Below, in pieces: positions 5,598 through 64,000 of a stretch of DNA of 64,000 bases (positions are counted from its first letter, which is position 1; every line of letters begins with the position of its first letter). Both the position numbers and the translations under genes were made by a program. The stretch comes from Candidatus Melainabacteria bacterium 17Bon1m (GTDB lineage Bacteria > Cyanobacteriota > Vampirovibrionia > Obscuribacterales > Obscuribacteraceae). The DNA is taken from assembly GCA_032128875.1 (NCBI GenBank), contig JAVLKG010000001.1, positions 985,453 through 1,049,452 on the forward strand. The letters run 5' to 3'. The notes beneath the pieces are model-generated. The model ran no database searches and was not told the origin of the DNA. It saw only the letters and a program-made list of their open reading frames with translations.

Positions 5598-6212
5598 ATG
5601 AAGAAGGCGATTGCCATTGTTGTGGGCGTCGTTTTGGTTGGAGTAATTGCGATTCTCGGAATTGCAGCAACTAAGCCGGACCAAGTTCATGTCGAGCGTT
5701 CGCTGACTATGAAGGCTTCGCCGGCTGCGATTCATCCTCATATCAACAACTACAAAAATTGGATGGCGTGGTCCCCGTGGGAAAAGCAAGACCCCAACAT
5801 GAAGCGCACTTTCAGCGGGCCTGAATCGGGCGTAGGCGCTAAGTACGCGTGGGTTGGAAATGACAATGTCGGCACCGGCGATATGACCATCACCTCGTCT
5901 GAGCCAGAGCAAATCAAGCTCGACCTGCACTTCGTCAAGCCTTTCGAAGGCACTAGCAAAGTCACTTTCTCAATGGTGCCGCAAGGTGATGCGACGAAAG
6001 TCACCTGGGCAATGGACGGCGAAAACGCTTACATGTGCAAGGTCATGCAAGTATTTATGAGCATGGATGAATGCTGCGGCAAAGAGTTCGAAAAGGGTCT
6101 TGCGAGCTTGAAGACTGTTTCCGAATCATCGCAAACCGCAGAAGGCAAGCCAGCCGAGAAGAAAGCCGCAGATAAGACTGAAGAGAAAAAAGAGACCGCA
6201 AATAATGGTTAA
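5598..6212 (+). CDS. SRPBCC (polyketide cyclase/dehydrase-like) family protein with N-terminal membrane anchor
   Basis: VERSLTMKASPAAI..WMAWSPW..GVGAKYAW..TKVTWAM..FEKGLASLK pattern; GAGG RBS before ATG 5598. Confidence 0.85.
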   Translation: MKKAIAIVVGVVLVGVIAILGIAATKPDQVHVERSLTMKASPAAIHPHINNYKNWMAWSPWEKQDPNMKRTFSGPESGVGAKYAWVGNDNVGTGDMTITSSEPEQIKLDLHFVKPFEGTSKVTFSMVPQGDATKVTWAMDGENAYMCKVMQVFMSMDECCGKEFEKGLASLKTVSESSQTAEGKPAEKKAADKTEEKKETANNG

Positions 6213-60992: not shown

Positions 60993-62258
60993 ATGAGTTC
61001 GGGCGAAAATTTGCCCTGCATATCATCACCCGAAGAGTTTGCCGAGATGGTCAAGACCGCGCTCAAGACCCGTGGCGAAGCAAGAACGCTGCGTTACGAG
61101 CCGGTTAGATTCGCATTGATTGTTGAAAACGAAAGTGGGGAGCCTCAGCAACTGTTCGGGCTGGCGGCGATGTTTGATGAATACAACACTGCCCACGAAA
61201 CCGAGCGCAATTCGGTTATCGATCGTTACTGTAGTTTTTTCCTTGGCGTAAATAGAAATAGTTTGCCGGATACTTTTGCTGAAGCAAAAGACGGATTGAT
61301 GCTAATTATTCGGCATCGTTATTTGTATCAAGTGATGCAAATGCGTTTAGCCCTCGAGCAAGGGATCACTGCTAAGAGCGATGAATTGCCGCAGGATCAA
61401 GAAATTCCCCATGTTATTGTCGGCGATGATTTTGCTGCAGGACTGAGTTACGATTTTCCTGATGCGATGATTCAGATTACGGGAAGACAGCTCTCTAAGT
61501 GGGGAGTTTCTTTTGATGAAGTCTATCAGTGTGCGCTGGAAAATCTAAGAAAGCGCAGCGAGAAGCCGCTTGTCGAGGCTGTTACCGGTGTCTATATCTC
61601 CAATTGGCAAGATGGCTATGATGCATCGAGAATTCTTCTAACAGACATGATTCAGAACTTGCCTTTTAAAGGCACTCCCGTTGTGATGTTACCCAGCGCC
61701 GAGAATATGGTTATGACCGGCTCGGACGACCTAGAGGGTTTGGCCTCCGTACTAAATGTTATTGAGCCCATGGCTGATAAGCCACGATCAATGGTTGGAG
61801 TCCCGCTGGTTTTGCGCGCTGGTGAATGGGTTCCGTTTGAGATGGCTCCAGAGCATCCGCTGTACGAGCGGTTTCGCGTGCTGCGAATTTCTGCCACCGC
61901 TCGCAGTTATGCAGATCAGCGTGGAGTCGTTTCTGAATGGTTGCAGAGCATAGGTGAGCCGGCAGTTGTAACACCTTACCTGGCAACACAGCGAAAAGAC
62001 GGCTCTGTTTCTAGCTGCAGTGTTTGGCCGGAAGGAGTTCCGTGTGTAATTCCTCGTGCTGACTCCGTTGTGTTTACCGGAGACTCGCAAGACTCAAATC
62101 AGGAAGTCGTCGCCTGCAACACATGGGAAAGGGTTTTGGAGGTTGTTGGCGGATTGCTGAAGCCGACGCCCTTTCATCCTGAACTCTACAGAGCAACTCG
62201 GTTTCCATCGTCCACCGAACTTGCTCAAATTGGCATGGGCGTTTCTTATTTGAAGTAA
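60993..62258 (+). CDS. DUF1444-like hypothetical protein
   Basis: YDFPDAM..LSKWGVSFDEVYQCALENL..DGYDASRILL. Confidence 0.6.
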   Translation: MSSGENLPCISSPEEFAEMVKTALKTRGEARTLRYEPVRFALIVENESGEPQQLFGLAAMFDEYNTAHETERNSVIDRYCSFFLGVNRNSLPDTFAEAKDGLMLIIRHRYLYQVMQMRLALEQGITAKSDELPQDQEIPHVIVGDDFAAGLSYDFPDAMIQITGRQLSKWGVSFDEVYQCALENLRKRSEKPLVEAVTGVYISNWQDGYDASRILLTDMIQNLPFKGTPVVMLPSAENMVMTGSDDLEGLASVLNVIEPMADKPRSMVGVPLVLRAGEWVPFEMAPEHPLYERFRVLRISATARSYADQRGVVSEWLQSIGEPAVVTPYLATQRKDGSVSSCSVWPEGVPCVIPRADSVVFTGDSQDSNQEVVACNTWERVLEVVGGLLKPTPFHPELYRATRFPSSTELAQIGMGVSYLK

Positions 62259-62287
62259 AAAGGTTACGGAGTTGCATTTAGATCGTC

Positions 62288-62995
62288 ATGATTAACGATG
62301 TGAAGCTTGCATTCAATTCCGGTGTCGAATTGCAAGGGAGCCAGAATGGTGTCTCTCGCGCTGTTGTCCTCGATCTGGGCATGAAGTTCGAACTTTCCTG
62401 GGATCGTTACATTCGTTTGTCGCATACAGCCGAAGCAATTAAAAGATACTTGTCGTCGGGAGCCACCATCCTTGATGTTGGTGGGTTTGACGGAGCTTTA
62501 GCTCTTTTCCTTCCTGATTTTTTTATTGACGTAATTGACCCTGTCACTACGGGCGGCAGCGGTTTTGATCTTCCAACAACATACACGAATGTTGTTGCGA
62601 TCGATGCGTTGGAGCATATCGAACCGTCGAGAAGAGATGAATTTCTCACGCAACTTTGCCGTGCTGGTGACAAGCTGTGCTTTATCAATTATCCCGCACA
62701 ACACTCTGAGAGTGCGCAAAAGCTTGTATTTGAGCTTACGAACAATCCTCTAGTTAGAGAGCATGTTGAGTGGAAACTTCCGGATAGCGAAGCAGTTAGG
62801 ACTTTTCTTGCAGATAGAGGATATGAAGTCGAGTTGCAACATTATGGCAGTGTCTCGCAATGGGTGTCTCAATATCTCTTGCAGACATTCGCTCCCGATG
62901 AAGCTAGTGTGGCTAGCCGTTTTTTGGTGGAAAATCATCTTACAGAGCGCTCAAAAATTTGGCTCTATGATCTTGTGATTGGTATTAAGCGCTAG
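62288..62995 (+). CDS. class I SAM-dependent methyltransferase
   Basis: ILDVGGFDG, VVAIDALEHI; start may be ATG 62381. Confidence 0.85.
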   Translation: MINDVKLAFNSGVELQGSQNGVSRAVVLDLGMKFELSWDRYIRLSHTAEAIKRYLSSGATILDVGGFDGALALFLPDFFIDVIDPVTTGGSGFDLPTTYTNVVAIDALEHIEPSRRDEFLTQLCRAGDKLCFINYPAQHSESAQKLVFELTNNPLVREHVEWKLPDSEAVRTFLADRGYEVELQHYGSVSQWVSQYLLQTFAPDEASVASRFLVENHLTERSKIWLYDLVIGIKR

Positions 62996-63081
62996 TCCAG
63001 CGAACAGAGCGATTAGTCTGTACAATACCAAGCATGAATATATTGAGTAAACTTCAAACTATAGAAGGGGGGCGTAAAAGC

Positions 63082-63267
63082 GTGGAAGCTTTGTTTTGGT
63101 CGATTGCAATCATCGCATCTTACTTTGCACTGCAATTGTGGATTTTGCCCCGATTTGGAATTTCCACTTGAATGTCGCGCAGCTGTTCGGTCGAACAGAA
63201 AAAAGGTGATTTAAAGACAGAGAGTAAGCAGCTTACGGAAAGTAGAAAGCCTGAAGCACCAGAGTAG
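63082..63267 (+). CDS. candidate small membrane selenoprotein (in-frame TGA at 63169-63171)
   Basis: GTG start after GAAGGGGGG; MEALFWSIAIIASYFALQLWILPRFGIST-U-MSRSCSVEQKKG..PE; SECIS-like hairpin 11 nt after the TGA; read-through frame ends 3 bp before the convergent gene. Confidence 0.6.
63183..63198 (+). promoter_or_regulatory. putative bacterial SECIS element
   Basis: CTGTTC-GGTC-GAACAG, starting exactly 11 nt after the TGA, with GU in the apical loop. Confidence 0.55.
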
Positions 63268-63270
63268 GCG

Positions 63271-64000
63271 TTATCGGCTATCGCCGCCGTGACCGCTTCC
63301 ATCGCCATCTTTTGCAAGGACAAGTGTTGATTTCGAACCCTGGGCACCGGCGATGGCTTTTCCTGCGTGATCACCACCACGAATACAGTAATTGGATTGC
63401 TCATCGCTGCTGGAATATTCAATTTTTCCCGCAGATATCGAAACGGGCGCCTTAAGTCTTTCCCTATAAGCACAGGTCATATTATTGAAGACGGGGTACT
63501 CGAGTTTTCCAGTAAAAGGATTCGGTAAAGCATTGCCGAATTTTTTCTTTTTAGGATCACCCCAAGGAAAGTAATATTTGAACTCATCATCCACGGCTTT
63601 GGGAAATTTGAAGTGCTCTTCTTTGTACAATTCAGCAGCCCACTGCACTGTCCGCATGTTGGCCTTCACCTGTGAATCTGGATCATTGGAAAGCACGTAG
63701 GTCAGTCGCTTATTCTGGGGGTCAAGCATTGCTTTGCCGTTGCCGGAACCAACTCTAACAGTAAAATCTTTGCCACTAGCAGCGATACTATATTCGACTG
63801 AGCCCGGATCCATTTTTCCGGGGGGAGACTTTCTGCATTTCTCCGGATCAGCGATTTTGCCAGTAAGAATCGGCTTGTGCTTCCCGAGATATGGGTTAAT
63901 TGGAATAGACCAAGATGTGAAAGTTTTGTCGTCGCACTCACCGAAGATCATGTATGACATGAAAGCATCATCCACCTTCTTCGGCAGCACGCCTTTGTGG
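63271..64000 (-). CDS. protein with tandem pilin-like globular domains (5' end outside window)
   Basis: Frame open to the window end; two similar units ([LF]PKxVDD..NP[YF]xGK..G[SK][VI]EYS..[FY]x[VI]R..GKA) linked by VKANMRTVQWAAELY. Confidence 0.65.
   Translation of the reverse strand, partial: HKGVLPKKVDDAFMSYMIFGECDDKTFTSWSIPINPYLGKHKPILTGKIADPEKCRKSPPGKMDPGSVEYSIAASGKDFTVRVGSGNGKAMLDPQNKRLTYVLSNDPDSQVKANMRTVQWAAELYKEEHFKFPKAVDDEFKYYFPWGDPKKKKFGNALPNPFTGKLEYPVFNNMTCAYRERLKAPVSISAGKIEYSSSDEQSNYCIRGGDHAGKAIAGAQGSKSTLVLAKDGDGSGHGGDSR

Follow-up and report, generated by a model that had tools for sequence, protein, structure and literature searches.

A candidate selenoprotein family of very small membrane proteins in non-photosynthetic Cyanobacteriota

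Bacterial selenoproteins that are decoded by SelB carry selenocysteine (Sec) at an in-frame UGA codon, which is followed within the coding sequence by a stem-loop, the Sec insertion sequence (SECIS). In fdhF of Escherichia coli, the stem begins 11 nt after the UGA, the loop has G and then U, and the upper stem contains a bulged U. Eukaryotes possess small selenoproteins that span the membrane of the endoplasmic reticulum once, SELENOK and SELENOS, with disordered cytosolic tails and a Sec near the C-terminus that is decoded via a SECIS in the 3′ untranslated region. A further point of comparison is offered by persulfide and reactive-sulfur operons of the cst/BigR type, which combine an ArsR-family repressor with rhodaneses, persulfide dioxygenase-rhodanese fusions and a TauE-like exporter, but which, to our knowledge, have not been reported to include any small membrane peptide of the [U/C]-x4-C kind. 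Here we consider a 64,000-nt stretch of the genome of Candidatus Melainabacteria bacterium 17Bon1m (contig JAVLKG010000001.1, positions 985,453 to 1,049,452; hereafter the window), in which positions 63082-63267 (+) are a true coding gene, overlooked or cut short by annotation pipelines, and in which an internal TGA is predicted to encode Sec, a reading to which we assign a probability of about 0.85-0.9.

Translated from a GTG codon and read through its TGA, the gene yields a 61-aa product with one N-terminal transmembrane (TM) helix, the motif ...LPRFGIST-[TGA]-MSRSC..., in which Sec and Cys would form a U-x4-C pair, and a charged tail predicted to be disordered. The features listed in the first-pass annotation of this DNA (two possible starts, the TGA, the ATG next to it, the open frame, the terminal TAG and a hairpin) were all recovered by direct reading. 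The conditions that the first pass had named as possible refutations were each examined, and none of them spoke against its interpretation. As in fdhF, the stem of the hairpin begins 11 nt after the TGA (17 nt separate the TGA from the loop) and the apical loop has G and then U, but the stem has only 6 bp, is unrelated in sequence and lacks the bulged U, an absence that the first pass had remarked upon and that the perfect 6-bp pairing bears out. The resemblance to SELENOK and SELENOS is one of architecture only, with no kinship in sequence to be expected, namely very small size, a single N-terminal TM helix and Sec within a disordered region, whereas in the window protein Sec would lie beside the membrane, be paired with a Cys at +5 and be decoded through an in-frame bacterial SECIS. 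With bacterial SelB/SECIS selenoproteins, the locus shares the in-frame UGA, the downstream stem-loop inside the coding sequence, a loop that starts with G and then G or U, a spacing of 16-37 nt, abundant Cys homologs and a partner Cys near Sec. Most characterised selenoproteins, however, adopt a thioredoxin-like fold and carry UxxC or CxxU motifs (PMC13188914), whereas the window protein is a peptide of ~60 aa with U-x4-C and without a confidently folded domain.

Searches of existing collections returned little that resembles this gene. Pfam and NCBIfam gave no hit for the read-through product at E ≤ 10 and only insignificant hits for 10 Cys forms, and the Rfam covariance models gave no match on the locus beyond a chance U54 hit (E = 7.1). 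None of the 119 prokaryotic families in Table 1 of a 2026 review has a U-x4-C motif or is described as a small single-pass membrane peptide, a comparison that was made by name only for a few cd/PTHR models (thioredoxin-like, CopZ, BtuF and Fe-S oxidoreductase domains; PMC13188914). Membrane proteins and Cyanobacteria are not mentioned in the accessible portions of the deep-Sep (PMC12013277) and BSepDB (PMC13326102) descriptions, and the accessible portion of a 2016 survey names Cyanobacteria only for an orphan SelD in Prochlorococcus (PMC5029168). In full-text searches, no relevant paper linked selenoproteins or selenocysteine with Melainabacteria, Obscuribacter or Vampirovibrionia, and supplementary tables may list further candidates. 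Judged from the comparisons set out below, the gene appears to belong to an uncatalogued selenoprotein family that would be decoded by the canonical bacterial mechanism.

Taken by itself, the arrangement in the window is unremarkable and lies within chance expectation. The pattern of TGA, 11 nt, a 6-bp stem and a GGTC loop occurs at 3 sites in the 7.55-Mb genome, with ~2.6 expected by simple arithmetic, and two of these sites belong to copies of the gene itself; the 16-nt hairpin by itself folds with only -5.6 kcal/mol, and the 42-nt fold of -10.4 kcal/mol (z = -1.76) is equalled by 11 of 200 shuffles. We nevertheless take the arrangement as real because 81 distinct copies preserve the whole of it, and the case therefore rests on comparison.

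A DNA search of 40 relatives returned matches to window positions ~63121-63203, which take in the last part of the TM helix together with the TGA and the hairpin, and these matches lie at unlinked places in 9 of 12 same-genus genomes. The genome under study (G000; 35 contigs, 93% complete) itself holds a second copy, L030, at C1:599055-599240 (+) (DNA-search match C1:599094-599180), which reads MDSVIWFVG...LGIPT-U-MSRSCSVGQ... and has two G-U pairs in its stem. All 13 initial copies read ...YFA[LM]QLWILPK[LFM]GIxT-TGA-MS[RK][SN]CSV[EG]Q..., after which comes a charged tail of variable sequence. A protein homolog search with the window read-through product (42-135 aa range) returned no candidate; the window copy is both divergent and short, and profile searches did find relatives. 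When a single genome of each species was scanned with the family alignment, 113 pattern matches emerged; tblastn confirmed 99 of them, and 80 loci were retained, which together with the window copy and its paralog make 82 motif hits, 81 of them distinct (L045 duplicates L044). Most loci come from records titled Candidatus Obscuribacter, Obscuribacterales or Melainabacteria, and the rest from Akkermansiaceae/Verrucomicrobiales, Myxococcota, 'Deltaproteobacteria', 'Proteobacteria' and one 'Chloroflexota' metagenome-assembled genome (MAG). The same names, Candidatus Obscuribacter, Obscuribacterales or Melainabacteria, are borne by the relatives from the genus and family of the host, which agrees with the first-pass guess, made from the sequence alone, of a non-photosynthetic member of the Cyanobacteriota. 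One contig, from Candidatus Melainabacteria bacterium SJ512 (L059), carries two copies ~3 kb apart (~2213 and ~5151), one of each N-terminal subtype.

At the critical codon, 80 of the 81 copies have TGA, one has TGT (Cys) and none has TAA or TAG, so that homologs retain either TGA or Cys at the site, one of the checks that the first pass had proposed. The terminal stops of the same copies are mixed (TAG 32, TAA 31, TGA 17, and one off the contig end), and the Thr codon just before the TGA varies synonymously (ACT 47, ACC 15, ACA 15, ACG 4). The codon after the TGA is ATG in 77/81 and a Leu codon in 4/81 (CTG twice, CTA, CTC). An independent start at 63172, which had been considered at the outset as a possible objection, is disfavoured because of these Leu codons, and the Cys forms are moreover single open reading frames (ORFs). 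The TGT copy, L055, is one uninterrupted ORF that reads ...GIPTCMSRNCSVEQ... / ...LGIPTCMSRNCSVEQKN...KSN*, and its tail DNA is 81-88% identical to the tails of Sec copies.

The hairpin can be set against published criteria for bacterial SECIS elements (bSECIS), which ask for a loop of 3-9 nt, a stem of 4-16 bp, 16-37 nt from UGA to loop, a G at loop position 1 or 2 with G or U after it, and a minimum free energy (MFE) of -7.5 kcal/mol or lower (PMC13188914, section 5). Loop, stem, G-G/U and spacing lie within these limits in 81/81 copies, and the MFE limit is reached by the hairpin alone in 53/81 copies, a number that rises to 75/81 if the 42-nt fold is considered as well. The copies fall into two hairpin types. 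In the GGTC type (64 copies), the loop is GGTC in 63, the single GGTT being that of the Cys copy L055, and the stems include CTGCTC/GAGCAG, CTGTTC/GAACAG (the window), TTGCTC/GAGCAA, GTGCTC/GAGCAC and TGAGTC/GACTCA. Across this type 99.4% of cells are paired and 4 of the 6 pairs have changed on both sides (15 such cells); none of 500 shuffles was as good, a count that is not a probability, here and below, the sequences being related, and registers slid along the alignment are only 22-53% paired. The covarying positions are synonymous third positions, with Cys TGC/TGT changing together with Glu GAG/GAA and Ser xxC/xxT together with Gln CAG/CAA, and the codons just 5′ of the stem vary freely. 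Such a pattern points to RNA-level selection overlaid on the coding sequence. The other type, seen in 17 copies from Verrucomicrobiales, Myxococcota and further groups, has a different 7-bp stem with a CGGGU-like loop and encodes CSPGE; 97.5% of its cells are paired, 4 of the 7 pairs have changed on both sides, none of 500 shuffles reaches its covariation score, and it too stands up to the control with slid registers. Compensatory changes, for which the first pass had suggested a search, are thus found in both types. In L055 (4605-4639 of the 'Chloroflexota'-titled MAG contig), the loop has changed from GGTC to GGTT by a synonymous Val change, and the genome still has SelA; the loop change would fit a relaxed SECIS constraint after conversion of Sec to Cys.

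Consistent with Sec decoding, the whole machinery that the first pass had named is present in the genome: a tRNA-Sec (67.5 bits, cut-off 47; called by ARAGORN as SeC with anticodon tca), SelA (430.5 bits) and SelD (370 bits), both above their cut-offs, and SelB (285.8 bits, cut-off 242). We further looked at co-occurrence across 151 genomes drawn from the class, which are kin and not independent. A strong match to the family was found in 25 of the 151 genomes, and of the 34 strong matches 33 have a single in-frame TGA and one has three. SelA is above cut-off in 31/151 genomes and in 24 of the 25 that carry the family, the exception, G161, being 86% complete; a weak additional match in G134 (22 bits, within a 762-aa ORF) is probably spurious. 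Outside the sample, SelA was found in 5/5 genomes, namely 2 of Verrucomicrobiales, 1 of Myxococcota, 1 of 'Deltaproteobacteria' and that of L055. A formate dehydrogenase alpha subunit or glutathione peroxidase with in-frame TGA was not found in genome G000; for this reason the Sec trait is not kept up here by FdhA or GPx, both of them widespread selenoproteins, and neither could serve as a positive control.

The Cys homologs allow the protein to be considered apart from the hairpin. Because the +5 Cys codon sits in the stem, only Cys forms separate protein constraint from RNA constraint on this residue. A collection of 1.84 billion representatives, searched with a profile, yielded 286 hits at E ≤ 1e-3, the best 150 of which were classified. 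Among these 150, Cys stands at the site in 70, with C-x4-C spacing in 64 of them, and 56 end exactly at the Thr before the site and are truncated calls. The short database proteins ending in LP[KR]xG[IV][SP]T that the first pass had mentioned do exist, and its expectation that gene callers would miss or truncate the gene also held, as these 56 stop at the Thr and the window copy was not found in the protein collection. When 7 Sec forms are aligned with 45 Cys forms (52 rows), the residues L, P, G, T, [U/C] and the +5 Cys show no variation, so that the sequence past the TGA is conserved, another point on which the first pass had asked for evidence; the Met after the site is also kept in Cys forms (TCMSG). 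A search with this alignment in a larger collection gave 761 homologs at E ≤ 1e-3, and among the 120 listed, every named one is a 'hypothetical protein', Pfam domains are absent throughout, and the named organisms are Planctomycetota. Metagenomes were scanned with 10 of 43 Cys forms, as the full 43-row Cys alignment was too diverse, so the genomic context of Cys forms given further below is mainly that of this subgroup. The 75 metagenome loci with the motif have TGC in 51, TGT in 15 and TGA in 9 (Cys in 66/75). The sequences delineate a widespread family of ~50-90-aa single-pass membrane proteins that share the core motif W-[IV]-L-P-x-[LF]-G-[IV]-x-T-[U/C]-[ML]-S-x-x-C. Cys is the residue used by the majority, with predicted Sec forms in Obscuribacterales/Melainabacteria, Verrucomicrobiales/Akkermansiaceae and Myxococcota MAGs. 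One of the 150, the 1248-aa database protein P0004, gave 13 profile matches over positions 25-38 through a repeated ...LSISTCFSRPVSVSL... unit, and is probably an unrelated long repeat protein.

Evidence that the tail is translated comes from 9 non-overlapping close pairs, in which tail substitutions number 23/14/38 at codon positions 1/2/3, the usual coding pattern. Among 23 close pairs there are 2 internal gaps, both of 3 nt and both involving L030, probably a single event; an analysis of indels in all pairs (158 pairs, 531 gaps, 130 of them multiples of 3) was discarded, being dominated by low-complexity misalignment. At the other end of the gene, the first pass had left the start undecided between GTG 63082 and ATG 63034, and of these the GTG is supported and the ATG is not. 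A Met conserved 29 codons 5′ of the TGA aligns with the window GTG 63082, an upstream stop in L039 excludes a longer N-terminus there, and Cys homologs start 3-4 residues ahead of the helix; for these reasons a GTG start and a length of 61 aa are the predicted ones. AlphaFold2, run on the 52-row alignment, predicts a helix over residues 2-25 (predicted local distance difference test, pLDDT, ~90) and a disordered tail (pLDDT <50 at residues 41-56), with a mean pLDDT of 65.6 and a predicted template modelling score of 0.35.

Several observations weigh against the view that the TGA encodes Sec within a conserved redox motif. The window hairpin on its own falls short of the MFE limit and reaches it only with a predicted lower helix in the 42-nt fold, and for 6 of the 81 copies neither fold gets down to -7.5 kcal/mol. 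Because the +5 Cys codon lies within the stem, its conservation could be RNA-driven if Sec forms alone are considered, and the couple is not universal, as a Verrucomicrobiales MAG (L121, ~6078-6120) keeps the TGA and the hairpin and has CGT (Arg) in place of the +5 Cys that all the other copies possess. Apart from Cys, the best 150 of the 286 profile hits also show W (17), R (2), S (2), G (1) and L (1) at the site; W-bearing database proteins include P0007, P0013 and P0020. In the tail, frame +1 stays open for at least 15 codons in 56/81 copies against 76/81 for frame 0, and because the sequence is A-rich and T-poor, the openness of the tail frame is weak evidence. The motif itself is modelled with a pLDDT of 52-64 and no confident fold. 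Lastly, three runs labelled RNA-Seq hold window positions 62000-64000 only in contigs of 22-57 kb with flat depth and are uninformative on transcription; a DNA run of the same sample likewise gives flat-depth contigs over these positions, and the RNA-Seq-labelled libraries evidently contain genomic DNA.

Among the other explanations for the locus, the least improbable, although still very unlikely, is that the TGA is a true stop, leaving only a 29-aa membrane peptide, and that the hairpin is a regulatory or stability element of the RNA. The hairpin is indeed short, that of the window copy is weak by itself, and the conservation of 'MSRSCSVEQ' overlaps the stem-loop and may partly be at the RNA level. 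Against this, Cys forms need no SECIS and yet retain the [C]-x4-C motif and the tail, the substitutions in the tail follow a coding pattern, TGA forms were seen only in SelA-positive genomes apart from the one genome that is 86% complete, and bSECIS limits on loop, stem and spacing hold in every copy; the sequence 3′ of the hairpin is, moreover, A-rich and not T-rich, so that the hairpin is no intrinsic terminator on the plus strand. The locus might otherwise consist of two small genes joined by TGA-ATG stop-start coupling, one for a membrane peptide of 29-45 aa and the other for a hydrophilic peptide of 31 aa starting at ATG 63172. Although an ATG directly follows the TGA in 77/81 copies and the first part is often called alone (56 of the best 150 representatives), we consider this arrangement highly improbable. 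The ATG is replaced by CTG, CTA or CTC in 4/81 copies, no Shine-Dalgarno-like run lies just 5′ of ATG 63172, and the Met kept after Cys (TCMSG) is a feature of the protein and not a start. The two halves are joined in a single ORF in L055, in 70 of the best 150 representatives and in 66/75 metagenome loci, and although TAA or TAG would serve a coupled stop just as well, all 80 copies with a stop at this place have TGA, while the terminal stops are mixed.

Just as improbable is the reading that the UGA is passed without Sec, through near-cognate insertion of Trp or Cys or through an alternative genetic code. The W found at the site in 17 of the best 150 database relatives would speak for it, but one of these proteins, P0007, is a close relative of L108, whose DNA carries TGA, and for this reason W at the site is probably a product of gene calling with TGA = Trp. 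Elsewhere in the genome TGA is an ordinary stop, 17/80 terminal stops within the family are TGA, and SelA, SelB, SelD and many other genes have no internal stops; Sec decoding, and not leakiness, accounts for a dedicated covarying hairpin at SECIS distance as well as for the co-occurrence with SelA. The idea that there is no gene at all, and that a frame left open by chance between genes, or else a non-coding repeat, was mistaken for one, has next to no probability. The window instance alone is statistically unremarkable and the first protein search was empty, but 99 relatives confirmed by tblastn, the 286 and 761 profile homologs, the conservation of amino acids alongside synonymous nucleotide variation and the conserved neighbourhoods in our view already refute it. 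Decoding of the TGA as Sec is the preferred reading.

The coordinates of the gene and of its surroundings are collected in Table 1. In other copies, the region that matches the G-rich run is likewise purine- or G-rich, for example AAGGAG in L039.

Table 1. Sequence features of the candidate selenoprotein gene and of its neighbours, in window positions.
Feature	Position	Strand	Remarks
Upstream ORF, 421 aa	60993-62255	+	Sub-threshold DUF1444 match only
Methyltransferase-like gene, 235 aa	62288..62995	+	Upstream, co-directional; recurrent neighbour of this paralog
Alternative ATG extension, 16 codons	63034-63081	+	Frame open; probably untranslated; absent or blocked in L039 and Cys forms
Shine-Dalgarno-like G-rich run GAAGGGGGG	63064-63072	+	9 nt 5′ of GTG start; putative ribosome-binding site
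N-terminal 29 codons, GTG start and TM helix ending ...YFALQLWILPRFGIST	63082-63168	+	GTG aligns with conserved ATG of other copies
In-frame TGA (U30 of 61-aa product)	63169-63171	+	TGA/Cys column in relatives; abutted by ATG 63172
C-terminal 31 codons, MSRSCSVEQ and variable K/E/S/P/Q-rich tail	63172-63264	+	Tail predicted disordered
SECIS-like hairpin CTGTTC/GAACAG, loop GGTC	63183-63198	+	6 bp, no bulge; CTGTTC 63183-63188, GGTC 63189-63192, GAACAG 63193-63198
Cys codon TGT, +5 from Sec	63184-63186	+	U-x4-C couple; also within hairpin 5′ arm
Terminal stop TAG	63265-63267	+	3 bp before stop of convergent ORF
Convergent ORF, at least 239 aa, off window end	63271..63990	-	No Pfam/NCBIfam family

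Of the genes that surround the window copy, the 235-aa protein encoded upstream matched no Pfam or NCBIfam family; its ortholog at L044 reaches 25.5 bits on Methyltransf_23, below the 27-bit cut-off. The cluster to which this protein belongs is represented at 12/81 loci and provides the nearest upstream gene at 5, and at L044, L047 and L057 the same arrangement as in the window is accompanied by a divergent ArsR-rhodanese fusion upstream. The commonest neighbourhood of the Obscuribacterales type runs from a divergent ArsR gene through rhodanese + YgaP-like TM (191 aa), TauE/SafE, MBL-fold + rhodanese (471 aa) and Pyr_redox_2 + rhodanese (587 aa, CoA-disulfide-reductase-like) to the small gene and an alpha/beta hydrolase. 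It includes the second copy of this genome, L030, which stands at the end of a co-directional operon of rhodanese, TauE, MBL-rhodanese and CoA-disulfide-reductase-like-rhodanese genes; against the CoA-disulfide reductase model, the 587-aa protein reaches 480 bits and so falls short of the NCBIfam equivalog cut-off of 579. Overall, a rhodanese-containing gene is the nearest co-directional upstream gene at 18/81 loci, and a truncated globin lies directly upstream at 10 verrucomicrobial loci. Around the Cys forms (n = 75 loci), the neighbours are thioredoxin (20), zf-HC2 anti-sigma-type proteins (17), YgaP-like TM proteins (8), DUF302 (8) and Usp (8).

The commonest Obscuribacterales neighbourhood, with ArsR, rhodanese + YgaP-like TM, TauE/SafE, MBL-fold + rhodanese and the CoA-disulfide-reductase-like + rhodanese protein, resembles cst/BigR operons, whereas the window copy adjoins a methyltransferase-like gene and lies outside such an operon. 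The YgaP-like TM domain (DUF2892, PF11127) is likewise a small membrane segment associated with rhodanese, and is a neighbour of both Sec and Cys forms. Kinship, for which an ending of the type '...LGIxTC' would have spoken, was considered and rejected, as PF11127 gave no hit (E ≤ 10 for the Sec form, E ≤ 1 for Cys forms) and the C-termini of the YgaP-like neighbours, which read ...SGTCALGIMLGKAPWN...CCS, lack the motif; the domain is a neighbour of the family and not a relative.

The theme common to these neighbourhoods is thiol, persulfide and redox chemistry, and for this reason we propose a membrane-tethered selenol/thiol relay. In the preferred reading of the gene, initiation at GTG 63082 would produce a single N-terminal TM helix ending in WILPRFGIST, and the hairpin, with its 6-bp stem and GGUC loop, would recruit SelB with Sec-tRNA(Sec), so that the UGA at 63169 is decoded as Sec and translation continues through MSRSC and the disordered charged tail to the TAG at 63265. 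In the proposal on function, the Sec/Cys pair would lie on the cytoplasmic face of the membrane, as the charge distribution suggests, where Sec may attack a persulfide, polysulfide or disulfide and the resolving +5 Cys may convert the adduct to a selenenylsulfide; the couple may be recycled by a thioredoxin, CoA-disulfide-reductase-like or rhodanese protein encoded nearby. Our confidence in the proposed function is low to moderate, and this specific mechanism, in which the Sec/Cys pair at the membrane surface serves as a selenol/thiol redox or sulfane-sulfur relay couple, is a tentative suggestion that is less likely to be right than wrong. Association in neighbourhoods does not establish function, the loci come from related genomes and are not independent, and the neighbours of the window copy, a methyltransferase-like gene and a convergent gene without a family, are less informative than those of the paralog.

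A genome-wide scan for TGA followed by a hairpin gave 388 candidates, 137 of them with a nearby Cys, nearly all of which are noise outside coding frames; the only one of note lies at C6:273341. The gene in question, G000:C6:272795-274159 (+) (L128 196-1560), lies outside the window and encodes a candidate selenoprotein of ~447 aa with an N-terminal signal or anchor, which reads ...GKPVLLFQMMGHLDDRFC-U-TNARL.... Weak thioredoxin-fold hits span its TGA (DUF255, E 3.9e-4; VPGUxxT seleno-thioredoxin models, 18-19 bits), and 16 nt separate this TGA from the start of a 7-bp hairpin with the loop CGUGUU. Orthologs from at least 10 same-genus genomes (62-90% identity) retain the TGA, as do paralogs of ~24% identity, including G000:C11:87635-88126.

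Taken together, the fullest hypothesis that we can offer is that the window gene is the founding Sec member of a large undescribed family of ~60-aa membrane-tethered [U/C]-x4-C proteins, which would act as relay partners for rhodanese, thioredoxin and CoA-disulfide reductase in the handling of persulfide, polysulfide or selenide, and which, with the candidate on C6, would help to keep the Sec trait in non-photosynthetic Cyanobacteriota; in this complete form it is doubtful, and unlikely to hold in every part. The finding adds a probable selenoprotein family that is lacking from Pfam, NCBIfam, Rfam and the 2026 catalogue of 119 families, and whose Cys relatives are also uncharacterised, and it illustrates how standard gene calling hides or shortens such genes. 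As a very small membrane selenopeptide, the protein would be tractable by experiment, since its synthesis is feasible and natural Sec/Cys pairs are available for comparison. For the biology of these organisms, the gene would document the use of Sec in the non-photosynthetic Obscuribacterales branch of the Cyanobacteriota, and it draws attention to what may be an overlooked part of bacterial persulfide and thiol-stress operons.

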